Below, piece by piece: positions 5,954-45,552 of a stretch of 45,781 nt of DNA. The number at the start of each line of letters is the position of its first letter. Within the stretch, counting starts at the first letter, position 1. This DNA comes from Methanosarcinaceae archaeon. GTDB taxonomy: Archaea; Halobacteriota; Methanosarcinia; Methanosarcinales; Methanosarcinaceae. The translations under genes and the position numbers were made by a program. The DNA is taken from positions 1 through 45,781 of the forward strand of contig JAHYJJ010000001.1 of the NCBI GenBank assembly GCA_019429165.1, given 5' to 3'. The notes below the pieces were generated by a model. It did no database searches. It worked only from the letters and a program-made list of their open reading frames with translations, and was not told the origin of the DNA.

Positions 5954-5957
5954 TCGT

Positions 5958-6284: not shown

Positions 6285-6450
6285 AATTTTATTAGGCACC
6301 AAGTATATTATTATATAAATGTTACCCCACATATTAATCGAACCTCTATTTTTCGCAAACTTAAAAAACTCTCACCAATTAATAGTAACAATTTTTATCA
6401 TTTTTTTTTAAAATCCCACAGACCAAAAGAATAACCATAAAAATCGTTTT

Positions 6451-6817: not shown

Positions 6818-6846
6818 TATATAATTATATAAACTTTGTGGTATAT

Positions 6847-7296: not shown

Positions 7297-7333
7297 ATCA
7301 CCGCACCAATTCACATCCCCATCCGTTTCACCG

Positions 7334-7483: not shown

Positions 7484-7486
7484 CTC

Positions 7487-7858: not shown

Positions 7859-7869
7859 ATTTTATCACC

Positions 7870-7992
7870 TTAACATTTATTATTTGACATTTCATCAATG
7901 TCAAAGAATATTTCATTATTTTTTCTACAGGCGTAAAAGCCTGTAGTGATTAGCCAAAAATGTTTACATTTTTGACATTTTTCATTTTCCAT
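7870..7992 (-). CDS. Small Cys-containing protein (40 aa)
   Basis: My own translation: MENEKCQKCKHFWLITTGFYACRKNNEIFFDIDEMSNNKC. SD AAGGTGA lies 9 nt upstream. Confidence 0.4.
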   Translation of the reverse strand: MENEKCQKCKHFWLITTGFYACRKNNEIFFDIDEMSNNKC

Positions 7993-8013
7993 TTTTTTTT
8001 CACCTTTTTTTTT

Positions 8014-8062
8014 GGGTGTTCTCACACCCTCAAATATATATTGTATTATATATTTATAAAGG
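8014..8062 (-). promoter_or_regulatory. Conserved replication-module motif, copy a: hairpin plus AT-rich box
   Basis: Hairpin gggtgt-tctc-acaccc (8014-8029) next to caaatatatattgtattatatatttataaagg. The same box recurs at 11205-11236 and 13943-13972. Overlaps the PolB stop and precedes the next transcription unit. Confidence 0.4.
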
Positions 8063-10363: not shown

Positions 10364-10662
10364 ATATCCCACCCTTGTATCAAGTACACACCAGACCCAC
10401 CCAGACGTATCGTGTCCTCTTCAATGGTTTTTATATACTTTTTCAATTCATCGCAATATTTTTCAGAAGTGGTGAAATCACACCGACAATATATTGCGAC
10501 ACTTGTTACGTGGTCGTGTTTTTTAATGCGACACCTGGGTGCGTCGCATAGTTTACCATCGTGAGATGGTATAAATGGGTGTGGTATATCAAGCATGTCA
10601 ACCGCATAGAAATTGTTGTGCTCGCTCTTACCCAGATGTCTAACTGACTGTTCCTGGCGCAT
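10360..10662 (-). CDS. Hypothetical Cys/His-rich protein
   Basis: ATG at 10662, 6 nt after AGGTG. Translationally coupled to PolB. No recognisable family. Confidence 0.5.
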   Translation of the reverse strand: MRQEQSVRHLGKSEHNNFYAVDMLDIPHPFIPSHDGKLCDAPRCRIKKHDHVTSVAIYCRCDFTTSEKYCDELKKYIKTIEEDTIRLGGSGVYLIQGWDI

Positions 10663-10671
10663 ATACAACAC

Positions 10672-11169
10672 CTAAAAACCAACAATTTCATAGGACAATA
10701 ACTGTCCGATAATCTCGTCATATTTGTTTTGGTCGTCTGGATTGATATTGTCAATGACTTTTATTGGTACATTATAATTGTCTCGTGCGGTCATGATATC
10801 AAATATATATGACACTGCATCAGACAGTTTCAACCGAATGTAACCATTGAGAATAAATATACGCTCAAATATTGGCACATCCACAGAACAACCAGTCCGC
10901 TCCAGGGTGTATATATCGTTAGTGTCGCCACCGTGTATCATTTTTCTCATTATATTTTTGTATTTGGTCTCTGGATTTTGTTTGTCCTCAACCTTGATAT
11001 CGTAGCCAGTACCACGGTTCTCAATCATAATCCGCGTAACCCACTCCCCCAGGGTTCCGACCGCACCATCGGGTGTCGCTCTGAACTCTCGAAGTTCAAC
11101 CGGCATCTCATCTTCACCGGTTTTTATTCTATACAGTGTATATTTATTTTCGTTTTCCATTTTTTTCAT
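10672..11169 (-). CDS. Hypothetical protein
   Basis: 165-aa ORF, first gene after regulatory motif copy b. No recognisable motif. Confidence 0.55.
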   Translation of the reverse strand: MKKMENENKYTLYRIKTGEDEMPVELREFRATPDGAVGTLGEWVTRIMIENRGTGYDIKVEDKQNPETKYKNIMRKMIHGGDTNDIYTLERTGCSVDVPIFERIFILNGYIRLKLSDAVSYIFDIMTARDNYNVPIKVIDNINPDDQNKYDEIIGQLLSYEIVGF

Positions 11170-11184
11170 CTCTTTTTTTTTTTT

Positions 11185-11236
11185 TACATACCTAAAAGGT
11201 ATGTAAATATATAATGTATTATATAATATATAAAGG
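11185..11236 (-). promoter_or_regulatory. Conserved replication-module motif, copy b
   Basis: Perfect dyad tacatacct-aaa-aggtatgta (11185-11205) followed by aaatatataatgtattatataatatataaagg. A T13 run lies at 11173-11185. Confidence 0.4.
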
Positions 11237-11260
11237 TTGTGGTTTAAACAACATCAGACA

Positions 11261-13321
11261 TCAGACATCATATCCCTGACTCATCAGTGCCACTTTTCGT
11301 GCCTTGGTGTGCTCACGCAGAACCTTATGAGTGTCCTCAAAATCGTAATAGAACGCCCCCACTTTACCGGGTATCTTACGTAAGACCCTGCCCAGGCACT
11401 GAACCGTCTTTATACTCCCCAAATTAGCGCTGTAATTGACCAGGACGTCAAGGTTAGGTATATTAACACCCTTCTGGATGACACCACTCGTTGAAATTAA
11501 TATGTTACCTGTTGAACTTTTAATCGTGTTTAATATATCTTCTCTATCTTTCTTTTTGGTTGTGCCGGTAATCACATAAGCATTGTCTATCATACCACTA
11601 ATGATATCAACATGCTCCAATCTATCAACCATTATTAATATATTATCTTTCTTATGTTTAATTGTTATCCCACGCAACAATTCCATCCTGGAATCAGACT
11701 GTAGCACCTGCTCATATACCTCATGGTAATCACCATTCACAATGAACTGTATATTATACTTCAGAAACTTAATTTCAGGACGCACCAAATACCCGGCATT
11801 AATCAAGTCAATCGCTCGTATCTTGAAATGTGGAACTCCAAATGACTTATATAACTCCAGGCTATCGTTACCGTCTGAGTACGCCGTGCCAGTTAGACCT
11901 ATCCTATACTCAGCACCTATCATACCCATTAGTTTCTGGTAACTCTTAGACCTGGCTGAATGCGCCTCGTCCACTATTACCACGTTACACTCGGATACTT
12001 TATTCAACCCAACCTTATCTTTAATCTTACACAATGTCTGGATGGATGCAATCGTGATGTCGTTCCAATCTTGCTTGCCCTCGGTCACAGTGCCCAGGTT
12101 ATCCAGGCCCAACTTTTTAAATTCGTTATAGGTCTGGGCAAGTAATATGTTCCTATCCACCACAAACAACGTTTTAAAACCCAGGCGTCTTATAATCTCT
12201 GCAGCAATTACAGTCTTCCCAGCACCAGTGCAAATTTCGGTGAAACTAATCTGGTCACCTATAATGTGGTTGATTGCATCCTCTTGATATGGTCGTGACT
12301 CAACACCAACCAAACATCGTGGTGTCTTTATCTGGTTTCTGGGCAACACCCTATTATCTGTCTCAGAAATTATCAACCTCAAACCTTTATGCTCCGCAAA
12401 CTGGTTCAGATACATGACCAACTCAGACTTAAGACCCAGGCTTGTTGTCTGGTTATGATACATCCGAATAATACCATCAAAACCCTTGACACCCCTGGTA
12501 TTTAGGTTTTTCATAACAAAATATTTGTTGTCTATCTCATAACTAAGTTGCTCTTCAACAATATCATTGAACTCATCTGGCATCTTAGTTTCAATCCGAA
12601 CCAGGTCATGGTCGTAGGACATATCAACCATCAAGAATTTATCATCGGTTATATTATCAACATAACATTTATTCTTATAACCACAAAAGAAACAACTTTT
12701 TAAGTTAGTTTTGTAAGACTCGGTCGTGGTTTTGGTGTTTTGATACGCAACCGTATCAAATATATGTTTTTCATACTCAACCAGGTCGGTCTCGCTGAAC
12801 ACAAAATCAATCACTTTCTGCGCCTTGGTATACACAACCATGGCCTTAGGTGGGATATAACCACAATGTTTCCAAACACCCCAACAATACCAGAGCAACT
12901 GTTCTCTGTACTGTTTCAACCCTTGGGTGTTAAACGTTGAAGTTTTCCAATCTAATATGCTTCCGTCTTCGAGGATTCCGTCTATGAGCATCTTAAATTT
13001 TAGTTTACCTTGTTGGAACAAGATAAGTTTTTCCTGTGACTTGAATTTGTAACCCAGGCTTCTTGCATAGTCCACCTGCACCCTGGCGGAATCAAGACTC
13101 ATGTCAGTATCATACATTTTATATTGCGCCCAGAGAGTATCCACAGACTCGCCAGTCTCAATGCACTTATGTACAATGTTTCCAAAATTCCCCCACTTAG
13201 ACTCAACAGAACCGCAGGGGTGTTTTAAAACCTTACCGTAGAAAAATCTACGCTCGCAAGATTTAAAGTCGTTGAATGAGCTAAAAGATAGGTTACCCAC
13301 CCAGGATAGTTTTGTTGACAT
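11261..13321 (-). CDS. Cas4/RecB-like PD-(D/E)xK nuclease fused to an SF2 (DEAD/DEAH-type) helicase
   Basis: N-terminal part: Cys in SCERRFFY, IDGILEDGSILDWKTS, QLLWYCW (QxxxY) and CFFCGYKNKC (CxxCx5C), which is the Cas4-type Fe-S nuclease pattern. C-terminal part: TGAGKT (Walker A), VVIVDEAHS (motif II), LGRVLR (motif VI-like). Confidence 0.8.
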   Translation of the reverse strand: MSTKLSWVGNLSFSSFNDFKSCERRFFYGKVLKHPCGSVESKWGNFGNIVHKCIETGESVDTLWAQYKMYDTDMSLDSARVQVDYARSLGYKFKSQEKLILFQQGKLKFKMLIDGILEDGSILDWKTSTFNTQGLKQYREQLLWYCWGVWKHCGYIPPKAMVVYTKAQKVIDFVFSETDLVEYEKHIFDTVAYQNTKTTTESYKTNLKSCFFCGYKNKCYVDNITDDKFLMVDMSYDHDLVRIETKMPDEFNDIVEEQLSYEIDNKYFVMKNLNTRGVKGFDGIIRMYHNQTTSLGLKSELVMYLNQFAEHKGLRLIISETDNRVLPRNQIKTPRCLVGVESRPYQEDAINHIIGDQISFTEICTGAGKTVIAAEIIRRLGFKTLFVVDRNILLAQTYNEFKKLGLDNLGTVTEGKQDWNDITIASIQTLCKIKDKVGLNKVSECNVVIVDEAHSARSKSYQKLMGMIGAEYRIGLTGTAYSDGNDSLELYKSFGVPHFKIRAIDLINAGYLVRPEIKFLKYNIQFIVNGDYHEVYEQVLQSDSRMELLRGITIKHKKDNILIMVDRLEHVDIISGMIDNAYVITGTTKKKDREDILNTIKSSTGNILISTSGVIQKGVNIPNLDVLVNYSANLGSIKTVQCLGRVLRKIPGKVGAFYYDFEDTHKVLREHTKARKVALMSQGYDV

Positions 13322-13352
13322 ATCAAATCACATAAAAAAAAAGGTTGTGGTC

Positions 13353-13907
13353 TTACAGACCTGCAACCGAATTATCGTCACCCACAATCTTAATTTTAAG
13401 ACTTGGAACTTCTAACACCCAGTTATGCCCAGCCGTGTCAGCACCACCTGCAACACGTTTGAATTTTACTGTCTGGTTTGCAAGTGTGAAATTGTTGTCC
13501 CTGCAATACCTAACCAGAGCATTCATCTTATAGACCAACTCCCAGTTTGATATCCTTATTCTGGACATTACCTGTTCAGACTCACCTTCGACCAGGTATT
13601 CACCAATTTCTTCCTTATTTTTATTCGTCAACCCTGAATAAAAACTCTTACCGTTGGTCTTATTAACAAAAGTCTTTCCCTCTTGTGTGTAATACCCACC
13701 AACACCAATCTTAAGTTCTGGTGTGCTCTCGCCAATGTCTGCCTTTTTAGGTAGATTAATCCAGTTTACGGTCTCCATTGTGGACTCGTCTATGACTTGT
13801 CTGCCAGACGTTACTGGTGCTTCTTGAACAGGTTCAACCCTGTCTTCAACTTTCTCGGTGTTCTTTGCGAACACGTTTATCTTTTTGTCGTTTATTTCGT
13901 TTCCCAT
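13353..13907 (-). CDS. Hypothetical protein
   Basis: 184-aa ORF, SD GAGGT 8 nt upstream. No recognisable motif. Confidence 0.55.
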   Translation of the reverse strand: MGNEINDKKINVFAKNTEKVEDRVEPVQEAPVTSGRQVIDESTMETVNWINLPKKADIGESTPELKIGVGGYYTQEGKTFVNKTNGKSFYSGLTNKNKEEIGEYLVEGESEQVMSRIRISNWELVYKMNALVRYCRDNNFTLANQTVKFKRVAGGADTAGHNWVLEVPSLKIKIVGDDNSVAGL

Positions 13908-13923
13908 TTTTACAACCTCTTGT

Positions 13924-13972
13924 TACATACCTAAAAGGTATATAAATATATATTGTATTATATTTTTATAAG
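13924..13972 (-). promoter_or_regulatory. Conserved replication-module motif, copy c
   Basis: acatacct-aaa-aggtatat (one mismatch) followed by aaatatatattgtattatatttttataagc. Lies between the primase stop and the next start. Confidence 0.4.
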
Positions 13973-13983
13973 CTTATGCTTTC

Positions 13984-16092
13984 CTAACATAATACTTCTC
14001 TATCACTCGTTTCTTGTTTCTCGCCCTTGTATTTTATACCCTCAATGTATATACCAACCACAAAAACACCGTTTATCTTTTTTGTTGTGGTTTTCTTACT
14101 CAGCCCCTCTTGTTCCAGGACATCTATAAACTCTCGCTTGGACACCTTGCGCATTTTATTGTCCCTTAAAAACTTCTGATATTGGGTGTAAAAGTCAATA
14201 TACCCAACAAAACCGTTGACATCACTATCACAAAACCTGTCAATATATGCAGGTAGTGGATTTGATGCTTCAATGTATTTGTTCTTTGATTCTTCAATAC
14301 TCTTGTCCTCATTAGTAAATATACCAGTACCAATCAACCTTGGTAATATCTTGGTAATCTTAACCGCCAGGTTATTATATTCATGCGCTGGTATGGTTGC
14401 AAGAACATCTTTTTTTGATTTAAATTGGTTTGGGAAATCAATAATCTTCCAGCGCCTGTAATACCCATCCGATGTATCCCCAGAACTTGGTAATGAATTT
14501 GTAGCAATCAATATCTTTGCGTAATTTACCCCACTAATTGGTGTTTTATTCTTACTCTCAAAAGTAACATCATCTTGACCGCACAATCGTTTAAGCAGTC
14601 CAGTGTTTTTTATACTGTTGAAATTGGTCTCGCCCATTTTACAAACTAACTTTTTATATAACTTAGCGCACTCAAACCTGTTAGTGATAAGCGCCTCCAG
14701 GTCTGTGTCGGTTGTGTTGTGTTCACCCACAAAATGCTTAACTAACTGCAAGTATTTACTTTTTCCATTACTTCCAGACCCTATGAAACAAAAAATGTTG
14801 TGTATTGGGTAGTCCAGGACACAACAATATGCTATAATTTCATATAAGATGTCAACATAATCCTCACCCACCCAGTCCGTGAATAGTTTATCCATGACAG
14901 GCGTATCTGTGGACACACCCATACTATGTGGTATTGGATTAGTCATGAAATATGTGTGAGTTGCATCAAATATCCGCTCGGTCTCAAAGTCAAACACCTT
15001 ATCACCAAACTGTACCCAGGATTTATTAGGGTCTTTTGGTTTATTTTCTCTCCCCACCCACCGGAACGCCTCTAAGTAGTTACCTCTATGGTGCGACTTA
15101 ACCGCCTCACCGTCAAATTTTAGCGTCTCGTCTATAATACGCATCACCTCAACGTTATCAACCTGGATATATTTATATGAATTTTTATCCCAGAACCAAA
15201 AGTTCTGACCCATATCATAATAAAATGGTTGCGACTCGTAGAACTTCCTGACATTATACACATAATTTTTAATGTCAAGTGAATTGTTGGTGTTATATAA
15301 CACCTCAGAGATACCAGCGATCTCAAGTAATTTTTTCTTGGCCACCAAAAATGTGACCTTTTCATGTTCCATAATGAAATCAAACACCGTTCCACCCTTA
15401 CCACAATGAAAACAATGCCAGAGTCCTTTCTGGTCATCCCAGGAAAAGCACGACTTGGACTCACTATCGTGACCCAGCATGCACATGGTCGGTTGGCGCT
15501 TGATATCGTACCCAAATTTAGTCATTAAATCCGATAACTTGACCGCAGATTTAATCTCGTCATTTATATTATCCGTGTCCATGACGTGTTTGTATACCTT
15601 ATCTTCTGGGATAATGTCTCTCAGAATATATTTTATGTGTTCAATAGTAATATAAGAAATATCAACATCTTTCTCAACCTTATATTTGATACCAGATGGA
15701 TGCGTAGAGTTAGCACCGACCACTTGTCGTCCTGCACCCAGGATGTCCAGGATACTTGACCCCGTGCTTTTGTCGGCAATCTTCATATCCTCGTTATGGT
15801 CTGTTTGATAGTATAGGTGTATCTTCCCAGAACCAGTCCGAACCGTGAACGTCTCAGGAAACTTTTTGTAATATTTATTTATAATATCCTGCGAGTCAAA
15901 GTCAATCACAACATAACCCTCCTTGACAACAATCCCATAATTACCCCCCCAGGTGGTAATCTCCTCGTTGTCAAATGGTCTCAGAATAGTGTTCCAACTT
16001 TTCTCAGCTGGAATCTTAGTCCTTGGATTCAGTTTTATATAACTGAAATCATACTTTTTTAATTTGTCTGGAATTTCTACCATATTTTCCAT
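13984..16092 (-). CDS. Primase-polymerase (AEP) / zinc finger / SF3 (D5-P4-like) helicase
   Basis: AEP motifs VVIDFDS and GSGKIHLYY. Zn finger CMLGHDSESKSCFSWDDQKGLWHCFHCGKGG. Walker A GSGSNGKSK. Confidence 0.85.
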   Translation of the reverse strand: MENMVEIPDKLKKYDFSYIKLNPRTKIPAEKSWNTILRPFDNEEITTWGGNYGIVVKEGYVVIDFDSQDIINKYYKKFPETFTVRTGSGKIHLYYQTDHNEDMKIADKSTGSSILDILGAGRQVVGANSTHPSGIKYKVEKDVDISYITIEHIKYILRDIIPEDKVYKHVMDTDNINDEIKSAVKLSDLMTKFGYDIKRQPTMCMLGHDSESKSCFSWDDQKGLWHCFHCGKGGTVFDFIMEHEKVTFLVAKKKLLEIAGISEVLYNTNNSLDIKNYVYNVRKFYESQPFYYDMGQNFWFWDKNSYKYIQVDNVEVMRIIDETLKFDGEAVKSHHRGNYLEAFRWVGRENKPKDPNKSWVQFGDKVFDFETERIFDATHTYFMTNPIPHSMGVSTDTPVMDKLFTDWVGEDYVDILYEIIAYCCVLDYPIHNIFCFIGSGSNGKSKYLQLVKHFVGEHNTTDTDLEALITNRFECAKLYKKLVCKMGETNFNSIKNTGLLKRLCGQDDVTFESKNKTPISGVNYAKILIATNSLPSSGDTSDGYYRRWKIIDFPNQFKSKKDVLATIPAHEYNNLAVKITKILPRLIGTGIFTNEDKSIEESKNKYIEASNPLPAYIDRFCDSDVNGFVGYIDFYTQYQKFLRDNKMRKVSKREFIDVLEQEGLSKKTTTKKINGVFVVGIYIEGIKYKGEKQETSDREVLC

Positions 16093-25140: not shown

Positions 25141-25179
25141 AATAAAAAAAAGAAAATAAAAAGACCTTATAAAAGGTCT
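25141..25179 (-). terminator. Hairpin plus T-rich tract after the unit A major capsid gene
   Basis: Minus strand: agacctt-ttat-aaggtct (7-bp stem with the MCP stop codon in the loop), followed by ttttattttcttttttttatt. Confidence 0.55.
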
Positions 25180-26258
25180 CTTATCTTTCCCTGAGCATTG
25201 AACCTGTTACAGACAAGCTCGCCAGCCATGTAGTACATACCCTCTTTACCTAACTTACCAGCCTCAAAGAAGTTGGAAGTTTCAAAGTATTGTACTGGTT
25301 GTTTAACGCCTATATGTATATATTCTGTGTTTAGGAAGTAAATTCGGCTCTTTGTGTCTTTTGTAACATCTTTATCTCGTATGACAGGAATGCCATCAAA
25401 GGATGCAACTCGTAGACCAACATCGTTCCCTGCCGCTGTCTGAATACCACCATCGCCAACTGATATGTTAACTCGTTCGTTTACATATCGTGTCTGAGTG
25501 TTAACCAGAGCATCTAGGTCTCGTGCAGTGTCAAACCCTGTTATGATAACATTTGGTCTTGCGCCTGAGTTTTCTTCAATAGAATCTATTGCAGTCCTAA
25601 CCAATGCTTCTGTTATAGCTCGGTCTACACCACTTGCATGTGAAACGTAAGCGTCGTAAGCTGTGGATGCACTTCGGTCAAAACCATATATGTCAGCATC
25701 TCCTGCTGTCAATAAAGCTGATTCCTCAGATTGCCCAGAACATACTCGGTCTATGGACTCAATGTTATTTCCTGCGACTGTATCTGCATCACCGTGCAAC
25801 ATTTTGTTTATATGGTTTGCGAACTCTTTCGCCATATATTGTTTTACATGGTCGAAACCGATAGTGTCGTCGTTACCATCATCTAAAAGCTGTTGTCGGT
25901 TTGACATATCAAAAGTCTTACTAACTTCTTTCAATGATATTGCTGCAAGCGCCCAGGTTGGTTTAACTGTTTCTGGAAGTGCTGCATTTTCTGCCACGCC
26001 ACCAGTTCCCAGTGTGCTAGACCTTGCTGTGATAACTCTGAACCCTGTGTTTGCAAGTGGTTTCTTAGGTAGAACGCCCCAAGTTCGTGCCTCGTTATTA
26101 AGTAATTCCCAGACCGCTTCACCGTATACACGGTTATATACACCAGTAGTTGAACTTATCACAGGTGCGTCTGCTTTCATTACAGCCTGTGCGATGTCAC
26201 TATCTATGCTGCCATAATATGCTTCTTTCATATCTTCTATTGTGTTGAATTTAACCAT
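25167..26258 (-). CDS. Major capsid protein, HK97 fold (unit A)
   Basis: 363 aa, directly after the protease-scaffold gene (TAA-ATG abutting). Its length, its position and the C-terminal segment SRIYFLNTEYIHIGVKQPVQYFE are typical of HK97-like MCPs. Confidence 0.8.
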   Translation of the reverse strand: MVKFNTIEDMKEAYYGSIDSDIAQAVMKADAPVISSTTGVYNRVYGEAVWELLNNEARTWGVLPKKPLANTGFRVITARSSTLGTGGVAENAALPETVKPTWALAAISLKEVSKTFDMSNRQQLLDDGNDDTIGFDHVKQYMAKEFANHINKMLHGDADTVAGNNIESIDRVCSGQSEESALLTAGDADIYGFDRSASTAYDAYVSHASGVDRAITEALVRTAIDSIEENSGARPNVIITGFDTARDLDALVNTQTRYVNERVNISVGDGGIQTAAGNDVGLRVASFDGIPVIRDKDVTKDTKSRIYFLNTEYIHIGVKQPVQYFETSNFFEAGKLGKEGMYYMAGELVCNRFNAQGKIRDLL

Positions 26259-34601: not shown

Positions 34602-35696
34602 TTAAGCACACCCATATATCCTATAACAACGTGTTTCATCTACGATAATCATAGTAAGATATGATTTTATCATAAATTTATAGGAATCAGATGTTTTTGC
34701 TAATTCTTCAAATACAGCGTCTTGTAAAACTCTCATTTGAATGTTTGCACCACCCATACCAGAACTTGTATCTAGTATAAGCATTTCTCTACCAGAACCA
34801 GATGTTGGCATGAATAAATCTGGCATTATTGGTACACCCTCATAAAGAATGTTCTCAATACCAAAGTTTACTGTAGCTGTAGGTGCTGGGTATCTTAAGA
34901 CATCAAAGATAAGACCTTTAACATCAGATAGCGTTTTGTAATCAGTTACACAAATTGTTGGTCTTCCATAAGCTTCACGAATAGTTCTGAAAGCATCAGT
35001 TATATTCTGTAGACTTATTTTTGCACCAGATTTGTTTGTTGTGTTAGTTGTAATACCATTAATCAAACCAGTAAAACCTCGTACATCAGTTACACTACCA
35101 TCATAATCATCAACAGTTGGATTACCATTAATAATCAAATTCTCTTCAAGTTCTTTCAAAGCTTGATACTCAGAAGGAATCATTAAATTAAGTGCGTCTT
35201 TCCATTGCTGTGCAGATGCAACTTGCATTGGACCAGATACTTCACCAACTGCATAGATGTAACTCATCTTTTGTGCAGAACGTGCATATGTAGCCGTACT
35301 TGAATTTAAACCACCCATTTCACCATTAACAACTGCTGTTGCTGGTGCAGTCATAGTAATGTAATCAGCGAATAATCCTTTATTAGTCATTCTAGGAATT
35401 ATACCCGATGCTAAAGGAGTATCTCGTTTAGTCAAGTCATAAAGAACTGGGTCAACTATTGTTGGTAACAATACTGGTATACTACCACTTGTACCAGAAT
35501 ATGTTGTTCCAGTAGCCATCAAAGGACTTGATGTAGTAAGAGCAGATTTTATTTCTAGTCTCTTATCAATTTGTAAACTTTTAACTTCTGTTATTGGTGT
35601 GTGAAGATATACTGTCTTATCTGGTGTGTCACCAAATGAAGATGTATATGATACTTCTCCGTTAACGGAATTTATAGAATCTATACCTGTATTCAT
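34602..35696 (-). CDS. Major capsid protein, HK97 fold (unit B)
   Basis: ~364 aa, directly after the protease-scaffold gene. Typical MCP segments (IYAVGEVSGPMQVASAQQW, LEENLIINGNP, FTGLINGI). The ATG at 35696 is preferred over the track GTG at 35705. Confidence 0.8.
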   Translation of the reverse strand: MNTGIDSINSVNGEVSYTSSFGDTPDKTVYLHTPITEVKSLQIDKRLEIKSALTTSSPLMATGTTYSGTSGSIPVLLPTIVDPVLYDLTKRDTPLASGIIPRMTNKGLFADYITMTAPATAVVNGEMGGLNSSTATYARSAQKMSYIYAVGEVSGPMQVASAQQWKDALNLMIPSEYQALKELEENLIINGNPTVDDYDGSVTDVRGFTGLINGITTNTTNKSGAKISLQNITDAFRTIREAYGRPTICVTDYKTLSDVKGLIFDVLRYPAPTATVNFGIENILYEGVPIMPDLFMPTSGSGREMLILDTSSGMGGANIQMRVLQDAVFEELAKTSDSYKFMIKSYLTMIIVDETRCYRIYGCA

Positions 35697-35706
35697 AATA
35701 ATCACT

Positions 35707-36606
35707 CTATTTCATTTTTGCTTCAACTATCATATCAACAAAACTTTTTGGTTCAGATTTAACTTCAAGTTGTGGTGAAGCATCTACCAATGGTTTCTGT
35801 TTATCAACAGCTGATACTGCTTCTGCTATCATAGATTTAATTTCGTCTTTTGAAATTTTATCTTCTTTAACAGTAGTTTCAATCTTTGATTTTATCTCTG
35901 AAAGTTCTTTATCTTTAGAAGCTAGTTCTAATTTAAGAGTTTCAAGTTGTGATTTGATTTCGTCTAGATCAGAATCAGTCATAACTTCTGGAGTTTCAAC
36001 TGTAGGTTCTGGTGTGACGATACCATCATCTACAACACCGTTTTCGTCTTCGTTGGACATATCATCTACCTCAATTTTAGATTTCACAAAGAAATCTGTG
36101 ATTTTACAAGCTTCACATGCGGGTTTGCCAGTTAAAGCAACACCACCTAGTTGTATCTTGTTTAGTACTCTTATATTTTTACCATTTATGTTAGTGTTTA
36201 TGTATTCTTTAGGTTTAAATTCCATTGAAAATGCATCAATGAAACCATCTTGGATTGAACCCCAAAGATTTTTAAATTCAGTATGGTGTTTGTTTAATTG
36301 TACTCGTATAAATAAGTTTTTGGATTTTATCTCAGCACTAATGATTTTTGCTTTAGGAACTATTGTGTTATCGCCTTTGAAATATTGTTCGTGTTCTTCA
36401 TTACCTTTCAATGCACCGGAAAAGTTAGAATCTACATTCCTACCATTAATTTGCTGTGCCATATCTTGTATACATTCTTCAGTAACCATATCATTTACTG
36501 AATCTAGATAATTAGCAACTTCTAAAATACCTTCAACATAATGATTCCCATTATCGGATTTAAATTCAAATGTATTTGGATATACTTTGATTTTTTTGAA
36601 GTCCAT
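35707..36606 (-). CDS. Prohead protease fused to a coiled-coil scaffold region (unit B)
   Basis: N-terminal protease-like half, then an acidic heptad region (DLDEIKSQLETLKLELASKDKELSEIKSKIE). Lies between portal and MCP. Confidence 0.65.
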   Translation of the reverse strand: MDFKKIKVYPNTFEFKSDNGNHYVEGILEVANYLDSVNDMVTEECIQDMAQQINGRNVDSNFSGALKGNEEHEQYFKGDNTIVPKAKIISAEIKSKNLFIRVQLNKHHTEFKNLWGSIQDGFIDAFSMEFKPKEYINTNINGKNIRVLNKIQLGGVALTGKPACEACKITDFFVKSKIEVDDMSNEDENGVVDDGIVTPEPTVETPEVMTDSDLDEIKSQLETLKLELASKDKELSEIKSKIETTVKEDKISKDEIKSMIAEAVSAVDKQKPLVDASPQLEVKSEPKSFVDMIVEAKMK

Positions 36607-36652: not shown

Positions 36653-38200
36653 TTAAAAGTTATTCATATTTTTTGTTCGTTGTTTAACATATTCTTGAAA
36701 TGGACCGTCTGATTTGACTTGAACATTCTTATCTTGTTTAACTTTATCTTGTGCGAGTTTATCTGTACTTTCAGTTAGCATTTGATGATTATTAAGTTGA
36801 TTTTGACGATTTGTACTATTACCTTGCATTATAATTTTTTCTTTATGTTCTTCAACGTCAGTATCAATCAAACCCATTTCATGTAATAATTTATCTTTAG
36901 TAAGCCGTAAATCATATCGTGCAAGAATATCTTGGTTTTTAGTTAAAGTGTCAGCTCTCATCATAGCGATTTGAGTTTCTCGCACTTCATCTTGTTTATA
37001 CGTTCTATTAAATCGTAATGTGACTTTATACTCATCTAGTAACTGAGAATTTATCATATCCTCATAAATATTTTGAATATGTCCTACCTTCCTATAATAA
37101 CCTTCGGTTGATGTATTACTTCCAGTCACACCAGTACCGACCAATAAATCACTTAGACGTGAACTAGGAATACTCCAGACCATAACCATTAATTGAGTTA
37201 GATATCTAGCAAGTTCTCTGAACTCCATATCGTGGTCCATTTTATTTAGTTCTTTGACTTCAACTTTTCCAGTTAAAACTAGATTTTTATACTTATGAGT
37301 GATGTTAGCATATTGTTGAATAGCTTTCTTCATTTCCTTGTAATCGTTATCGGATGAGTTTGCATCTTCCATTATGAACATATAATTTGGTACGCCACCT
37401 TTCCTAAAATAATATCTGGTATAATCACGGATATCATCTAAAACGTCCATAATAGTTAAAAGAGATTGTGTTGGGGAATATCCATAGACTTTACCGTTAA
37501 TACGCATTAATCTAAAGTGAACTATCTGTTCTGGAGTGAACATAACACTCTCAGCACTATTCATTGGTCTCTGGATATAATGTTGTACGTCTCCATATTT
37601 ATTAGCAGTAATCTTTATTGTTGATGATGGAATATCAATAAACTGTCGTGTGGAAAATAGGTCTTCCTCAGTTGATTTTATAACTAGTTCGGTTAAATCC
37701 GAAATGGATTTCTGTTCATAACCATTATGACGTTTCTTAATAACCCTTGTTAGACTTTTACGGAAATCTGATTTTGTAAATGAATCTTTCCAAATATAAC
37801 CGTCCCCAGTTAAAAGTGTATCTATTAAAACTGAATGTAAGATTTCTTTAGCATGGTTATCACTTAGGAATTTCTCAGCACGTTGTACGTTATTACGACC
37901 ACCTTCAAGTCTCCAACCGTCACTTATAATGTCGTCAACGATTGCAGTTAAGATTGCTTGTAATTCTGGTGATGCCTTGAAATATGCCCAAAGAGTATCG
38001 TAATCAACTTCGGGGCCTCTACCGTATGGTGTAGCTATGACTGGTGACGGATTTTCGTTTGATAACGGAAAAGAATTAGAAACGGATTTTATTTCTGTTG
38101 TATTGCTTATTAACACGTTATCATTAAATGATTTCAAACTATTAGTAAATGAATCATATACTTTTCTCAAATAAGGATTATTATTGCTATTCATAACCAT
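36653..38200 (-). CDS. Portal protein (unit B)
   Basis: 515 aa. The segment GYSPTQSLLTIMDVLDDIRDYTRYYFRKGGVPNYMFIM parallels the unit A portal. Sits in the canonical position. Confidence 0.75.
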   Translation of the reverse strand: MVMNSNNNPYLRKVYDSFTNSLKSFNDNVLISNTTEIKSVSNSFPLSNENPSPVIATPYGRGPEVDYDTLWAYFKASPELQAILTAIVDDIISDGWRLEGGRNNVQRAEKFLSDNHAKEILHSVLIDTLLTGDGYIWKDSFTKSDFRKSLTRVIKKRHNGYEQKSISDLTELVIKSTEEDLFSTRQFIDIPSSTIKITANKYGDVQHYIQRPMNSAESVMFTPEQIVHFRLMRINGKVYGYSPTQSLLTIMDVLDDIRDYTRYYFRKGGVPNYMFIMEDANSSDNDYKEMKKAIQQYANITHKYKNLVLTGKVEVKELNKMDHDMEFRELARYLTQLMVMVWSIPSSRLSDLLVGTGVTGSNTSTEGYYRKVGHIQNIYEDMINSQLLDEYKVTLRFNRTYKQDEVRETQIAMMRADTLTKNQDILARYDLRLTKDKLLHEMGLIDTDVEEHKEKIIMQGNSTNRQNQLNNHQMLTESTDKLAQDKVKQDKNVQVKSDGPFQEYVKQRTKNMNNF

Positions 38201-38554: not shown

Positions 38555-38629
38555 TAACGTGATGTGGGTTTGAACCACAGAACTTCGGATTATGAGTCCG
38601 ATGAAATAACCAAGCTATTCTATCATGTT
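38555..38629 (-). tRNA. tRNA-Met (anticodon CAT; could equally be a CAT-type tRNA-Ile2)
   Basis: Folded by hand. Acceptor AACATGA/TCACGTT (one A-C mismatch). Anticodon stem TCGGA/TCCGA with loop CTCATAA. T arm TGTGG-TTCAAAC-CCACA. The D stem is weak (3 of 4 pairs). No encoded CCA. Not initiator-like. Confidence 0.7.
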
Positions 38630-40105
38630 TTAACACACATCAAAACTATATGAACTCTTTTTTGAATATGACGCCTCTAAAGCCATACCAAGACTCATTA
38701 CACAATCATCTTTATTACCGACACCCTCATAAGTCTCTTTCAATACCCTACCCATTAAATCCTTACGAACAACTTTTGAGAAACTGCGGAGTTCATTTAT
38801 CAATATCTCGTTATCCAATAAAATTAAAGTTCCAGTACTTAACGCAGACTGGATATTAGCTATTAATAGTTCTTTATTTGCTTGGGTTGTAATAAATCCT
38901 TTCATTACACTTTTTGTCTCTTGCATTTCCGTTAACGTTCTAACTAGACCTTTACTGAGTCCGTTCTCTTCAATTACAATCTGACGGAAGTTAAATATCT
39001 TATGAAGCTTAACAATACGTTCAATCTGTCTTTCAGTCTTCATTCCTTGATATCGTTCCAGTTTGACTATATATTGTGTTCCTTCAGGATTTACACCAAT
39101 TATCGTGTATACTGAGAAATCTGCTTTAGATTGGTCTGCAAGTGCGATATCACCACCCATATAATAAATCCAACCATCTCTAGGTTTATTTTGTATCTCA
39201 ACGTGACGATTCTCTAACAAGTTCTCAGTAAAGATACTAGAACCACCAGCCAGCGGATTACACATATATTCCCTATCAAAACGTAAGCCACCCATTAATG
39301 CACGAGTAGCTTTCAAGTTATCTAGAGACCCAAATTGTGGGTGGTCTTTCCATAACGGTGCTATCCATTTACCGTTTTTATCCGTTATAGCCGCTTGCCA
39401 TCGTCCACCGACCGGAGTAAGTCGTGCTTTTTTTAGGACTTCTTTAATTTCCTTTGAAGGGTATTGTAAATCGTTAAGTAAGTCATCTGTAGTCATCGGT
39501 GTACCTACAAGGACTATCTGACCTCTACCCATGTCACTCGCCGGGAAAATAACGTTCCAGAATAAATCTTTTACTTGGTCTTGCGTATATTTCTCGTCTC
39601 TAAGAATATCATCACAAATTGTGAAATTAGGACGTACACCACGACTTGTAGGTTTTAATGGTTTTACGAATGCCATATTACCAGTCACGGTTTCTAACTG
39701 TCTCGTGTTCCATTTCATATCCGTTCCCTCTGGACGGAGGTTTTTAAAAAAGGGGTTATTCATTATGATGTCGTGGACTTGTTTTAAGTTACTCTCAGTC
39801 TGTTCACGACTTGCACTAAACATTGCTATCTTACATTTCTTCTCACGCCAGAGTCGCCAGAGAACGTAACCAACTGAAACGTTTGTGGTTTTACCGAAAC
39901 CACGAGGTAAGATTAAATAAACGATTTGACCAGAGAAAAGGTAATTAGTCATGTCAACGTGGAATGGTGCGAACTTAATATCAAAAACGCCTTCAATGAA
40001 AACTTGAAGACTAAAATATGCTTTCTGACGAAATAATGCCTCATCAATCGGTGTTGCAAAGTTCATCATTTTTTCCCAACACCATGTATCGTAACTGAGT
40101 ATCAT
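38630..40105 (-). CDS. terL: Terminase large subunit (unit B)
   Basis: Walker A LPRGFGKTT, Walker B FTICDDILRDE, nuclease-domain motifs GGDIALADQSKADFSV and IEENG. Confidence 0.85.
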   Translation of the reverse strand: MILSYDTWCWEKMMNFATPIDEALFRQKAYFSLQVFIEGVFDIKFAPFHVDMTNYLFSGQIVYLILPRGFGKTTNVSVGYVLWRLWREKKCKIAMFSASREQTESNLKQVHDIIMNNPFFKNLRPEGTDMKWNTRQLETVTGNMAFVKPLKPTSRGVRPNFTICDDILRDEKYTQDQVKDLFWNVIFPASDMGRGQIVLVGTPMTTDDLLNDLQYPSKEIKEVLKKARLTPVGGRWQAAITDKNGKWIAPLWKDHPQFGSLDNLKATRALMGGLRFDREYMCNPLAGGSSIFTENLLENRHVEIQNKPRDGWIYYMGGDIALADQSKADFSVYTIIGVNPEGTQYIVKLERYQGMKTERQIERIVKLHKIFNFRQIVIEENGLSKGLVRTLTEMQETKSVMKGFITTQANKELLIANIQSALSTGTLILLDNEILINELRSFSKVVRKDLMGRVLKETYEGVGNKDDCVMSLGMALEASYSKKSSYSFDVC

Positions 40106-40905: not shown

Positions 40906-42125
40906 AATGTGTCACCTTGTTTCCTATCTACAAGTTGGTACTTTAACTCAAACAACAACAAACTCAAACAAAAGAGGAAGATTATAGTAAAGAGGAGTTC
41001 TAGTATCATACAAGTCGCCTGTGATTAGGACCTTGGAGTGATGTGTTCACACCCCTACAGTCTTACGAACAACCCTCAAAGACCAGAGGTATCGTCAAAA
41101 AGATATTACATTTTTCAATTATTAAAAGTTTCGGTGTTATTTAGATATCGTTGCATATACTTTTAAATAGATGAAAATGTATTAAATTAAGTGGTAGGAT
41201 ACGCTTTAATACCTTTTTCTTATCCTACCAACCCCCTATTTATACACAGTTGTCACTTTTAAAACGGACAACTTAGGTCGGAAAATTGCCGATAACGAAA
41301 ATGCATAAAAACCTCGGGGAAATTAAAGTACAAAAAAATCTGAAAAAAAACGAAACGATATCGGGGGGGTGTCATCAATATTCAGTAAAAATGGCGAGAA
41401 AATTATTTGGATACCTATTATACCCCCTACCCTTAAAGTTAGGCACTATACCCCCCCCTTGTTACTACTATATAATGACATATGCATATCTCACTATATT
41501 AATATATAAGTATAAAACTATAAAACTAGTACAATAGTGAAACAAGACCGATAACTATATAAAGCAGCCTGAACAATATATATTATAAACCAATAGGGGT
41601 TTATGAGGGGGTTAGAGTCATACAGTACTAGCTAAGGCTATGATGTACTTTATTATGGCTCCGCTCGTGGTAGGCAGTTGACGTAAACAGCGTCAGCTCA
41701 CAACATCGTATAGCACGGTGAACTTTAGGGATTGACTATTTTGACAAACATATGTATATAAATGGAACGCGGAAGCCTACTCCGTATCGTTACTGTCAAG
41801 TATGTTATGATGTCATAGGTCGGCTCGTCATTATCCTTAGATACAAGTATTTAAGGGGGTTTTGGGGGGGGTTAATACCCCCCTTTATATTTAGATAGCT
41901 CAGAGTGGTATACTGCTCTGAGTCTACATATAACACGTTTTTTATTAAGGGTTTAATATCCCCTCTATAAAGCGTGTGATTTTGAAAAGTAATTTTATAA
42001 GATTTATAATTACTTTGAAAGGTCTTGTATGTATTATCAAGGCGTATTTGTTTTATAATACCCTTGTGAAATTAGATAAATATAAATTCTAGTCTTTAAT
42101 AGACTAGTTAAAGGAGGAGATAAAA
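40906..42125. promoter_or_regulatory. Long non-coding divergent control region of unit B
   Basis: No credible ORF. Dyads at 41192-41230 (10-bp arms) and 41248-41273 (7-bp arms). G7 at 41364-41370, C8 at 41451-41458, G8-TTAATA-C6 at 41864-41883. Hairpin ctcagag-N10-ctctgag at about 41899-41922. Confidence 0.5.
42089..42107. promoter_or_regulatory. Perfect dyad ctagtct-ttaat-agactag abutting the SD of the first early gene
   Basis: Read directly. It ends 5 nt before AAGGAGGAG of 42126-42470. Confidence 0.45.
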
Positions 42126-42470
42126 ATGAATAATAAAAATCTAAAAATTAGAAATATGACCCCTCACGATGTGGGGGTTATAGATAAAACGACTAATAAA
42201 GTCGTTATAAACTACCTTTCAGAAGGTAGCATAAGGCTAACTGAAGAGAGAGAGTTTTTATATACTGTAAACGGCGTATCTGTTTATAGCAAAACTTTCG
42301 GGAGTGCTGAAATTCCCGAAAAAGTTAAAGATACGATGTATATCGTGTCTTTGGCGGTCGGGCAGGCCTATCCTGAGCGTACAGATTTCTTAATTCCGGA
42401 CCAATTGGTTCGGGATGAAAAAGGGGTAGTCTTAGGATGCACCTCTTTTACGGTTTTTAGTAATTACTGA
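42126..42470 (+). CDS. Conserved protein of unknown function; paralogue of 7487-7858
   Basis: Strong SD AAAGGAGGAG. About 75% aa identity with the unit A copy. Confidence 0.7.
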   Translation: MNNKNLKIRNMTPHDVGVIDKTTNKVVINYLSEGSIRLTEEREFLYTVNGVSVYSKTFGSAEIPEKVKDTMYIVSLAVGQAYPERTDFLIPDQLVRDEKGVVLGCTSFTVFSNY

Positions 42471-42957: not shown

Positions 42958-43395
42958 ATGAAAACGATTATTAAAAAGACTGAAACAATAAATATGAAAA
43001 TATCACGGTGTCCTATTGGACTAGAGATATACATAAAAAGTCCTGTTATAGAGGACTTTTTTAAAGGTTTGGCTCAGGGTGTGGTATCCACATCAACCGA
43101 AAGTAATTGGTTACCCCATAAGGGCTATACCCCTCAGGGCAATATAGAACATATTGCCAATACCCATTTTGATAATTGGGGGGGTTCTTTAGTTCAGAAG
43201 GGATATTATAATTTGTCTATGCTCCGGACTGTTGGCTTGAGTAAAGGACAAACCTTTAGATTCAAGGGAGTGTTTTCTAAAAACATGATAGAAAACATTG
43301 CAACAGAATTTAAAACCGTCTTAATTACGCTCATAAAAAATTATGTTAAACCTATGGAAGTAACCATTAAGGTTTATAGTAATGAAATAATTTAA
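42958..43395 (+). CDS. Hypothetical protein immediately upstream of the amidoligase
   Basis: 145-aa ORF. No motif. Confidence 0.5.
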   Translation: MKTIIKKTETINMKISRCPIGLEIYIKSPVIEDFFKGLAQGVVSTSTESNWLPHKGYTPQGNIEHIANTHFDNWGGSLVQKGYYNLSMLRTVGLSKGQTFRFKGVFSKNMIENIATEFKTVLITLIKNYVKPMEVTIKVYSNEII

Positions 43396-43404: not shown

Positions 43405-44058
43405 ATGGGATATAAATATATAAATAAAATAGGTATAGAAATAGAGGGAGGTTGGATACACTCCTTTATTTTAAAATATCTAAAAGGAGATGGTTCCGTA
43501 CATATCAATAATATGAGATGTTATGATGACGACGATGATGAGGATGAGGATTATAATGAACCCTATGGGTATTCCGGCGAAGTTTGTAGTGAACCTATAA
43601 ATATTCAGGAGGGTATTGAATATATAAATAACTATTATCCCGATGAGTTTAATGAAACTTGTGGGATTCATTTCCATATATCATTTAAAAACAATAAATA
43701 CGCCTCTATATTAACAGATAAACGGTTTTATGAGATGTTTATTAAAGACTTTACTGTTTGGGGATTAAAACAGAAAATAGATTCTAGTTCTTTATTCTGG
43801 ACCCGTTTAAACGGGAAAAATCAATTCTGTAAAAATATATTTAATCCGGACGGTCAGATATTACAAAACGATAGTAGATATACACAAATAAACTTTTGCT
43901 CATTAAAAAAACATAACACAGTTGAATTTAGAGTATTTCCGGTATTTGATAAAAAGCATCAAACTGTAAGTGCTTTAAAAAAATTAGTATCTATAATTAA
44001 TAAATTTATCGATAAATGTAACAAAGAGTATTCTGAAAAAATAACAATTAACATATAA
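43405..44058 (+). CDS. Amidoligase (glutamine-synthetase-like COOH-NH2 ligase, Amidoligase_2-type)
   Basis: Ordered motifs IGIEIEGGW, GDGSVHI, GEVCSEPI, CGIHFHISF, SRYTQINF and NTVEFRVFP match the conserved signature of this family as I remember it. Confidence 0.7.
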   Translation: MGYKYINKIGIEIEGGWIHSFILKYLKGDGSVHINNMRCYDDDDDEDEDYNEPYGYSGEVCSEPINIQEGIEYINNYYPDEFNETCGIHFHISFKNNKYASILTDKRFYEMFIKDFTVWGLKQKIDSSSLFWTRLNGKNQFCKNIFNPDGQILQNDSRYTQINFCSLKKHNTVEFRVFPVFDKKHQTVSALKKLVSIINKFIDKCNKEYSEKITINI

Positions 44059-44074
44059 GGGGGAGTGGATAATT

Positions 44075-44827
44075 ATGTGTATAGTATTAGTATGTAAAAC
44101 AGAAAAACCTACAATGGAAATTCTCAAAAATTGTGAAGAATCAAATGGCGATGGTGCCGGGATATCATGGCGAGAAGGAAATAAAATAAAATGGTCTAAA
44201 GGACATAATGCAGAAGAGATTTATACATTAAGTCAGTCTGTTGAATTGCCTTTTATAGTTCATTTTAGATTCGCCACAGTCGGAGGTTCTATAAAGGAAC
44301 TATGTCACCCTTTTAGTGTAACAAAAGATGTTAAAACAACATTAAAAGGTAGTGCAAAAGAGGTTATAATGCATAACGGTCATTGGTCCAATTGGTCTGA
44401 AGCTTTAAAAAACAATATGATATGTTCTAGTGCTAGAATACCTACGGGGGTATGGTCGGATACACGAGCTATTGCATATTTTACAAATAGATGCGGTTCA
44501 GGATTTTTACAGATGTTAGATGAAAAGGTTGTATTGTTTAATATGAAACATATAACTATATTTGGTTCTGGTTGGACTGAAGAAGATAATGGTATTATTT
44601 ATTCAAATACAGAGTATAAAGGTCGTTATAAAAGTGTATATCGTGAAGAAAAATGGACTAATAGACACTATAGAAACGGATATTATAAAAAAAATGGACA
44701 TTCTTATGGTCAGGATTATGAAGATAATACGCTAGAAGATGAAGAAAAGGAATTTGAAACAGATAGATTGGATAAAGATGAAAAATGTAAAAATGCTACA
44801 ATCTGTATGGCGGAATATATGGATTAA
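44075..44827 (+). CDS. Class-II (Ntn) glutamine amidotransferase-like protein
   Basis: The Met-Cys N-terminus (MCIVLV) supplies the Ntn nucleophile. Further motifs: GDGAGISW, HFRFATVG, HPF, MHNGHWSNW. Confidence 0.65.
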   Translation: MCIVLVCKTEKPTMEILKNCEESNGDGAGISWREGNKIKWSKGHNAEEIYTLSQSVELPFIVHFRFATVGGSIKELCHPFSVTKDVKTTLKGSAKEVIMHNGHWSNWSEALKNNMICSSARIPTGVWSDTRAIAYFTNRCGSGFLQMLDEKVVLFNMKHITIFGSGWTEEDNGIIYSNTEYKGRYKSVYREEKWTNRHYRNGYYKKNGHSYGQDYEDNTLEDEEKEFETDRLDKDEKCKNATICMAEYMD

Positions 44828-44839
44828 GGGGGTGTTATT

Positions 44840-45313
44840 ATGGATAAATTATTAGAAAATAAAGATGTAACTAAAACTATAAATGATTATGACTTATTAT
44901 TTGTATATGGAACTTTACGAAAATCCGGTAGTTTACATAAACTGTATTTAACCGATGCAATTTATAGTACTACAATAAAATTAAGTGGTGTTAAATTGTA
45001 TGAGTCTCAACTCCTACCTGTTGCCGTTTTGACTAAAAAGGATAAACATAAGATTAAAGGGGAGTTATATTATGTTCTTAAAACGGATATGCTCTCTATA
45101 GACAGATTAGAAAGTAGTTATAGAAAAGTTAAATTAACCGTTGCGATTAGCGGGTATAGTGAAAAACAAGAAGTTATAATGTATGTTAAAAAAACAACAG
45201 AAATTATAAATTTACAACCTTATCGTATTAAATCTGGCGATTGGATATTACATCAAAAGATTTTTGAAGATAAAGTTAATAAAATGTGTGAAGAAGAACG
45301 GTTTTGTATGTAA
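44840..45313 (+). CDS. Gamma-glutamylcyclotransferase (AIG2/GGCT-like) protein
   Basis: LLFVYGTLRKSGSLH (the YGTLR-x-G motif), GELYYV, LDRLESSYRKV. Confidence 0.65.
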   Translation: MDKLLENKDVTKTINDYDLLFVYGTLRKSGSLHKLYLTDAIYSTTIKLSGVKLYESQLLPVAVLTKKDKHKIKGELYYVLKTDMLSIDRLESSYRKVKLTVAISGYSEKQEVIMYVKKTTEIINLQPYRIKSGDWILHQKIFEDKVNKMCEEERFCM

Positions 45314-45369
45314 GACCAAAATCTATTTATACTCACAAAACAAATAACAATATAAGGGGGGTTATTAAA

Positions 45370-45552
45370 ATGAAATATAAAAATATAGAACGATTAATAA
45401 AATGGCATTACAAATACACAGAGATTTGTAAGCATAGTGCAACAGACTTTGTAAATAGATGTTTGCAAGGAAAATCTGAAATTAAAAAGCTAGAAACTAA
45501 CATAGTTTATGTGTGTCCGCCTTGTAAGGAAATGGTTGAATTGGTGGATTAA
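45370..45552 (+). CDS. Hypothetical protein
   Basis: The ATG at 45370 follows AAGGGGGG. 60 aa. The track start at 45304 overlaps the previous gene. Confidence 0.4.
   Translation: MKYKNIERLIKWHYKYTEICKHSATDFVNRCLQGKSEIKKLETNIVYVCPPCKEMVELVD

Follow-up and report, generated by a model that had tools for sequence, protein, structure and literature searches.

A compact amidoligase locus with a conserved upstream partner gene near the end of a 45.8-kb contig stretch

Among phage gene sets that are annotated often and assigned no function, the amidoligase/amidotransferase/cyclotransferase cassette is one of the most frequent, and what it does has been an open question since 2009, when Iyer, Abhiman, Burroughs and Aravind reportedly predicted the cassette by comparative genomics. 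We investigated one such locus near the end of a 45,781-nucleotide (nt) stretch of contig JAHYJJ010000001.1 (assembly GCA_019429165.1, Methanosarcinaceae archaeon; 'the window' denotes this whole stretch) and asked what chemistry its products are likely to perform. Three consecutive genes encode a putative glutamine-synthetase (GS)-like ligase, a predicted class-II glutamine amidotransferase (GAT-II) and a predicted gamma-glutamyl cyclotransferase, and the gene directly upstream encodes a 145-amino-acid (aa) protein, here called p145. On sequence grounds, the best explanation of the locus is a phiEco32/LUZ24-type amidoligase cassette in compact form, with four genes. Comparative genomics had already described systems of this kind, and the trio itself will not surprise a specialist; what is new is the reduced architecture, whose core narrows to the ligase–amidotransferase pair, together with the p145 partner family, viral contigs that carry several copies of the triad, and a fusion of amidotransferase and cyclotransferase. 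With just three or four genes, all small and with products that look soluble, the locus is a minimal set open to direct reconstitution and makes a 15-year-old question testable.

The 2009 work is cited in PMC4431377 and in other papers. Phage genome papers label the gene set a 'peptidoglycan modification cassette' (PMC5498523, PMC11945000), the same set was read as nitrogen or glutathione auxiliary metabolic genes in Phage-ZRK32 (PMC10945688), and Lee et al. described amidoligase and amidotransferase genes, their function unassigned, beside thymidine-hypermodification genes (PMC8989533). A first-pass annotation of the window, made from the sequence alone, described the phage linkage as noted by comparative genomics and as having no known biochemical function; the literature bears this out, yielding annotations and speculation, and no biochemical characterization of the cassette was found in it.

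Family assignments of the four products

The open reading frames (ORFs) of the trio lie exactly where the first-pass annotation had placed them, with gaps of 16 nt from ligase to amidotransferase and 12 nt from amidotransferase to cyclotransferase, and all three starts are preceded by a purine-rich Shine–Dalgarno (SD) sequence (AAGGTG, AAGGGGGAG and AAGGGGGTG). The three families that it had read from motifs were recovered by profile matches and conserved residues, including the active-site residues (Cys2 of the amidotransferase and the metal and ATP ligands of the ligase), which are present and conserved in alignments. PADLOC and NCBIfam searches with the four module proteins returned nothing informative.

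Sequence comparison confirmed the first product as a predicted Amidoligase_2, or GS-like, carboxylate–amine ligase consisting of a minimal catalytic domain of ~200 aa. Searched alone, it matches Pfam Amidoligase_2 (PF12224) just under the cut-off (E 2.6e-4, 21.4 bits; cut-off 22), and despite this sub-threshold score the family assignment is settled by the PF12224 matches of its relatives together with its conserved residues. A relative that is 58% identical (P0002) carries PF12224, as do 12 of 21 aligned relatives (best E 2.3e-29) and, among the database matches listed, 120 of 120 ligase relatives; a hidden Markov model (HMM) iterated from the window ligase found 84 ORFs in 79 loci. Across 47 sequences, G10, E12, E14, E59, G87, H89, E174 and R176 are invariant and D29, S31, C86 and N163 nearly so (at least 90%), so that the conserved metal, ATP and acyl-phosphate set is present as a GxExE strand, DGS, E, CGxHxH, N and ExR. 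Sequence matches of the ligase in the PDB were rejected as spurious, involving kelch-like designer repeats through 'DGxxHxN' only. An acidic run, DDDDDEDEDYNE, occupies residues 41-52 (43525-43560) between the DGS and GE motifs and is predicted with low confidence; acidic inserts like it also occur in loci L001, L005 and L020 and are absent from most relatives.

The second product was confirmed, again by comparison with relatives, as a probable class-II glutamine amidotransferase domain with Cys2 as N-terminal nucleophile (Ntn). It is a stand-alone domain of ~190 aa followed by a charged, variable, low-complexity C-terminal tail. Alone it falls below the GATase_6 cut-off of 27 (22.2 bits, E 1.5e-4); its relative P0018 passes (27.8 bits), other relatives fall just short, and NCBIfam gives a weak, colinear purF match. 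Met-Cys begins 89 of 90 homologous amidotransferase ORFs, and across 28 sequences N24, G27, G29, H63-F64-R65 and N101-G102 are invariant, with S128-D129 conserved in at least 90%. We take Cys2, R65, N101-G102 and D129 to be the PurF-type set Cys1/Arg73/Asn101-Gly102/Asp127, an equivalence that follows the known family pattern rather than a structural superposition. The public gene call (P0004, 237 aa) begins at Met14, dropping 44075-44113 and with it Cys2; an SD precedes the Met-Cys start and none precedes Met14, which, with the Met-Cys beginning of nearly all homologs, supports the upstream codon as the start. Sequence matches in the PDB were spurious only, a scan of genome contigs with the amidotransferase alignment gave no match, and tblastn against GenBank phages gave one, phage C75C1.

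The third product is assigned unambiguously, by its profile matches, to the GGACT/AIG2-type gamma-glutamyl(amine) cyclotransferases: it matches PF06094 (GGACT) over 118 of 120 profile positions (E 2.9e-16, 60.5 bits; cut-off 22.8) and phrog_2520 (E 3.5e-10), and resembles Bacillus subtilis YkqA (PDB 2qik, E 8.8e-6) and PH0828 (1v30). Its Y23-G24-T25-L26-R27-K28 and G74-E75 (GE-Y) align with the motifs of both structures, E75 presumably being the catalytic glutamate. An exact-sequence look-up of the window cyclotransferase found no identical record. An 82-aa ORF with a TTG start (45304-45552) overlaps the end of the cyclotransferase gene; its real start is probably the ATG at 45370, which follows a strong AAGGGGGG SD and would give a product of ~60 aa, and a homolog follows the cyclotransferase gene in L001.

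The phage C75C1 (OQ984151, L083 6001-6897) links the second and third genes. It encodes one 298-aa protein in which GAT-II, at the N-terminal end, is joined to GGACT at the C-terminal end (residues 167-285, E 2.7e-21); the only annotation in its record is 'gamma-glutamyl cyclotransferase'. This is the only fusion found for the amidotransferase: the 319 retrieved proteins include no ligase–amidotransferase or p145 fusion, and the window protein has no covalently attached synthase domain. As read from its domain matches, the C75C1 protein is a Rosetta-stone link between the two genes, and the window order of amidotransferase, 12-nt gap and cyclotransferase mirrors it.

The first-pass annotation had also named the 145-aa protein upstream as a candidate substrate or partner. 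The family is large: an exhaustive phmmer search gave 222 representative clusters at E ≤ 1e-3, nearly all of them stand-alone proteins of 140-190 aa. p145 has no match in Pfam, PHROG, NCBIfam or PADLOC, nor by tblastn in GenBank phages. Its AlphaFold2 (AF2) model is confident (predicted local distance difference test score (pLDDT) 92.8, predicted template modelling score (pTM) 0.82), and Foldseek found no relative of the model in the PDB (best E 1.2) or BFVD (best E 0.87). Over 95 sequences no column is invariant and only S28, N85 and G97 are nearly so; the C-termini are variable. Three ligases, those of L020, L042 and L082, carry a ~190-aa N-terminal extension that gives a weak, colinear alignment to the p145 profile (hhalign probability 49.5%, E 1.7e-4, 108 columns), and these proteins may be p145-like fusions. 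p145 is not detectably related to phiEco32 gp85, which holds the same position (hhalign probability 0.09%), and a kinship of the two was rejected.

The conserved unit across viral loci

Which of these genes belong together was assessed by scanning IMG/VR with the amidotransferase alignment, which gave 80 loci, and by searching their ORFs with HMMs iterated from the window proteins. The ligase gene lies 5' of the amidotransferase gene on the same strand for 85 of the 90 amidotransferase ORFs, with 78 of these 85 gaps within 120 nt and 8 of the pairs overlapping; of the five exceptions, two are at contig starts and uninformative. The linkage of ligase and amidotransferase is near-universal. A cyclotransferase gene, by contrast, lies within ±8 kb in only 8 of about 90 surveyed loci. 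The conserved unit is (p145)–ligase–amidotransferase rather than the trio that the first-pass annotation took as the unit, and the cyclotransferase is an optional accessory. The trio order itself recurs: the gene order of the window is repeated in L001, the locus of the 58%-identical ligase relative, and its recurrence there and in dozens of viral contigs argues that the trio is more than chance. An exact-pattern scan of metagenome contigs for sequence extending L001 found nothing.

Of the loci that the amidotransferase scan gave, 14 contain a p145 homolog, in most cases directly 5' of the ligase gene. When contigs were instead looked up through p145 homologs of decreasing similarity (P0051, P0055, P0100 and P0150), all four look-ups gave p145, ligase and amidotransferase in that order, with p145 directly 5' of the ligase gene. 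Stop codons of p145 genes and start codons of ligase genes often overlap. A p145 scan of viral contigs found one locus only, the family having diverged beyond what pattern scanning can follow. Together, this conserved and translationally coupled synteny strongly supports p145 as a probable genuine partner of the ligase, in line with the first-pass suggestion.

The loci fall into two groups. In one, a short ligase (212-300 aa) occurs together with p145, and in this clade the p145–ligase linkage is obligate. The larger group is without p145; database names tie its ligases to Verrucomicrobia, the ligases are extended at the C-terminus by a conserved stretch of ~80 aa, and a DNA ligase and AAA+ proteins flank the pair. 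Two large viral contigs carry multiple copies. The 121-kb contig of L084 has three tandem p145–ligase–amidotransferase triads (8007-15517), and the 150-kb contig of L005 has two (1155-8816 and 14316-15833) plus three extra stand-alone ligases. Such tandem paralogous triads argue for a self-contained module and suggest modular specificity.

How does this unit relate to the canonical cassette? The phiEco32 genes are transcribed in the order COOH-NH2_lig gp86, 204-aa gp85, Amidoligase_2 gp84, 676-aa GAT-II gp83, ATP-grasp gp80 and GGACT gp77, an order shared by the LUZ24-like phage UFV-P2 (PMC3890496). Like the window, the phiEco32/LUZ24/PaP3 type encodes Amidoligase_2, GAT-II and, later, GGACT on one strand among non-structural genes, and a small unannotated ORF (phi32_85 in phiEco32, ORF22 in UFV-P2) stands directly 5' of Amidoligase_2, as p145 does. 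The window proteins are smaller, with a ligase of 217 aa against 366-385 aa and an amidotransferase of a ~190-aa domain plus tail against 486-676 aa, and so diverged that tblastn reaches a single GenBank phage. The window also differs in its ligases. No phiEco32-type COOH-NH2 ligase (HMM from six PF14395-type neighbours, best E 0.12) and no ATP-grasp ligase (best E 1.1) was found in the 45.8 kb searched, sequence past 45781 lying outside the search. In a subset of p145 loci the triad is flanked by a phiEco32-type COOH-NH2 ligase (PF14395, E 1.9e-16) and by an R2K-clade ATP-grasp ligase, the latter below the Pfam cut-off (R2K_3, E 1e-4). The operon continues past the window end, which lies 470 nt 3' of the cyclotransferase gene, so that more cassette genes downstream are possible.

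Candidate chemistries for the module

The reading that we favour, with a probability of about 0.4, is a gamma-glutamyl-amide make-and-trim or carrier logic in which p145 would partner the ligase without being catalytic itself. With ATP, the ligase would activate a carboxylate as the acyl-phosphate; if GS, glutamate–cysteine ligase (GCL), PuuA and GmaS are a guide, this would be the gamma-carboxylate of free glutamate. The ligase would then couple that carboxylate to a substrate amine, giving a gamma-glutamyl amide. p145, which has no catalytic signature, might bind the ligase as a scaffold, specificity or acceptor-presenting subunit. The amidotransferase, with its complete glutamine/gamma-glutamyl pocket, could take off the gamma-glutamyl group through a Cys2 thioester, and the cyclotransferase could free the group as 5-oxoproline, leaving the free amine. 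The gamma-glutamyl group would then act as a transient handle, protecting group or amine carrier, in parallel with EgtA/EgtC, BtrJ/BtrG and GmaS/MgsA. GAT-II and GGACT enzymes both require a gamma-glutamyl moiety with a free alpha-amino group, and characterized GS-family members activate the gamma-carboxylate of glutamate; because the GS-like protein is the only ligase found in the window, make-and-trim is favoured.

The catalytic steps have counterparts in known pathways. EgtA of ergothioneine biosynthesis is a GS-fold ligase that makes a gamma-glutamyl amide, as the window ligase may; EgtC is a stand-alone Cys-Ntn GAT-II that removes gamma-glutamyl, resembling the window amidotransferase; and BtrG of butirosin biosynthesis is a GGCT-fold enzyme that takes off a gamma-glutamyl protecting group as 5-oxoproline, resembling the cyclotransferase. 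The likeness is drawn at the level of fold and chemistry; the tailoring enzymes that intervene in these pathways are absent from the window, and BtrJ is an ATP-grasp enzyme whereas the window ligase is GS-like.

Several points count against make-and-trim. No substrate, product or complex has been observed, and a ligase and a hydrolase acting on one bond would form a futile cycle unless a step intervened, for which nothing is encoded nearby. Most loci have ligase and amidotransferase without a cyclotransferase, and these pairs are often flanked by replication genes only. No invariant p145 residue could mark a modification site. The AF2 model of the ligase is moderate (pLDDT 69, pTM 0.73), and Foldseek comparison of that model with the PDB gave no significant match (best E 0.45, template modelling score up to 0.43), the non-significant top folds being YbdK, GshF, glutamine synthetases and plant GCL.

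Some of these observations fit better with the closest rival, a somewhat less probable reading as a three-subunit glutamine-dependent amidotransferase working by the logic of GatCAB, MurT/GatD or AsnB. Here the Cys-Ntn glutaminase would feed ammonia to the GS-like subunit, which would convert a carboxylate into a carboxamide, with p145 as a small structural or specificity subunit and the cyclotransferase peripheral. This explains better why the tightly coupled pair so often occurs without a cyclotransferase. The full glutamine-binding set described above is retained, all characterized class-II glutaminase domains pair with a synthase, and a small subunit gene directly 5' recalls GatC. GatCAB and MurT/GatD are like the window in that ATP-dependent carboxylate-activating and glutaminase subunits are encoded together, in GatCAB with a small third subunit, whereas the folds of all their subunits differ from those of the window proteins. 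Glutamine-dependent amidation leaves no role for the cyclotransferase, which is adjacent in the window and in L001 and fused in C75C1; an amidotransferase–ligase fusion is absent among the 319 retrieved proteins; and stand-alone GAT-II proteins of the EgtC type, with the same residues, are gamma-glutamyl hydrolases. Make-and-trim, which the first-pass annotation had proposed, stays plausible, and glutamine-dependent amidation fits the widespread ligase–amidotransferase pair at least as well.

A further and unlikely variant is that p145, ligase and amidotransferase form an enzyme of a new three-subunit type that acts on a macromolecular target in early counter-defence. The small p145 would then direct two enzymes, a GS-like ligase of minimal size and a glutaminase (or gamma-glutamyl transferase) of the Cys-Ntn type, to a host or phage protein or a nucleic acid, and the contigs with two or three paralogous triads would have several target specificities. 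Were the module to serve counter-defence or to modify a macromolecule, ATP-dependent amide ligation or amidation would be a new chemistry in the phage takeover repertoire.

Three other roles are less likely than either make-and-trim or glutamine-dependent amidation. The first, which we consider improbable, is a protein-tagging or carrier pathway parallel to Pup/PafA/Dop and LysW/LysX, in which p145 or a host protein would be the substrate: one of its side chains would receive glutamate, or a different amine or carboxylate, from the ligase, and erasing or processing would fall to the amidotransferase and the cyclotransferase. PafA and Dop, both GS-like, set a precedent for protein ligation by a GS fold, and GGACT enzymes classically act on epsilon-(gamma-glutamyl)-lysine. 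p145 is small and non-enzymatic, and in every case it is accompanied by a ligase gene of its own, with which it has been duplicated. Pup–PafA–Dop shares with the window a GS-like ligase, a small partner protein and an amidohydrolase step; p145, in contrast, is folded, 2-3 times larger than Pup and without a conserved C-terminal Gln/Glu, and the hydrolase is a Cys-Ntn GAT-II rather than the GS-like Dop. Over the 95 sequences p145 has no invariant Lys, Glu or C-terminal residue; with its variable C-termini, this speaks against a tag of the Pup or LysW type that reacts through one fixed residue. About half of the loci are entirely without p145, and GAT-II and GGACT pockets need a glutamyl group with free alpha-amino and alpha-carboxylate, restricting them to small molecules or side-chain gamma-glutamyl adducts.

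Still less probable is the cell-wall role attributed to Iyer and Hardies, in which gamma-glutamyl or iso-glutamine linkages in peptidoglycan precursors would be remodelled to block superinfection or to recycle host material. Stem peptides do hold a gamma-D-glutamyl bond and are amidated by ligase–glutaminase pairs such as MurT/GatD, and the reading is repeated in the two phage genome papers that use the peptidoglycan label. The idea needs the full three-ligase cassette, whereas the window has one ligase; signal peptides are absent, no Mur-like genes lie nearby, and experimental support was not found in the literature. Least probable is a role as auxiliary metabolic genes, raising nitrogen or glutathione-type metabolism in the host, the gamma-glutamyl-cycle reading given to the same gene set in Phage-ZRK32: a GS-like ligase, an Ntn hydrolase and a GGCT (elsewhere also an ATP-grasp enzyme) do parallel the Meister gamma-glutamyl cycle, but the Phage-ZRK32 study offers growth correlations only, the window proteins are far from housekeeping enzymes, match no NCBIfam equivalog and are tied to the phage-specific p145, and their operon is headed by a likely anti-CRISPR ring nuclease.

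The operon and its surroundings

The four module genes belong to a + strand operon that starts at 42126, 3' of a 1.4-kb intergenic region, and runs divergently from a - strand terminase/portal/capsid module (Table 1). We propose that p145, ligase, amidotransferase and cyclotransferase genes are co-transcribed and translationally coupled. The promoter-like site upstream is the best consensus match in the region and a consensus match only. The first-pass annotation had called the trio early-expressed; that timing is suggested by position, namely the divergence from the terminase module and the promoter-like site, and the operon's first gene points the same way.

Table 1. Positions of the module genes and of other features in the window
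Feature	Positions	Strand	Remarks
p145 gene	42958-43395	+	145 aa; stop 9 nt before ligase gene
Ligase gene	43405-44058	+	217 aa
Amidotransferase gene	44075-44827	+	250 aa
Cyclotransferase gene	44840-45313	+	157 aa
Promoter-like site TTGAAA-17-TATAAT	41982-42010	+	5' of operon; 11/12 consensus matches
Crn4-family ring nuclease homolog	42126-42470	+	114 aa; operon's first gene; context, not amide module
Crn4-family paralog	7487-7858	-	123 aa
Set 1 portal	1003-3183	-	
Set 1 large terminase	3939-5288	-	
Set 1 major head protein	25167-26258	-	
Set 2 major head protein	34602-35705	-	
Set 2 protease	35707-36606	-	
Set 2 portal	36653-38200	-	
Set 2 large terminase	38630-40105	-	
DNA polymerase, helicase, primase	8054-16092		higher-GC part
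tRNA-Met (CAT)	38555-38629	-	ARAGORN and Rfam; between portal/104-aa ORF and low-GC-module large terminase

The product of that first gene matches PADLOC profile PDLC01138 (Unk_01, 'sometimes fused to CARF') over its full length (E 2e-27) and Crn4a/Crn4b in the PDB (9sma/9qs9/9r7b, E 9e-7 to 1e-5). Crn4 is a recently described CRISPR ring nuclease with catalytic T13/H15/R112, reported in only 11 phage genomes (PMC12830947), and T12-x-H14 and R96 of the window protein align with these residues. It is likely, from this resemblance, an anti-type-III-CRISPR enzyme, possibly also acting against the cyclic oligonucleotide-based antiphage signalling system (CBASS). With a Crn4-like first gene, an anti-defence role for the operon is plausible, which says nothing direct about the amide module.

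Elsewhere, the - strand of 1-40685 holds two non-homologous packaging/head gene sets. No terminal repeat was found in the window and the operon runs off its end, which together indicate that the window is not a complete genome. A scan with the 617-aa protein encoded at the GC shift gave no match, nor did blastn of the amidoligase region against GenBank phages. GC content is ~0.39 over 1-28 kb and drops to ~0.33 over 28-45.8 kb; given two unrelated packaging/head sets and this shift near 28 kb, the contig may have been assembled as a chimera or may hold two phages arranged in tandem. The amide module lies entirely in the low-GC part, along with the second terminase.

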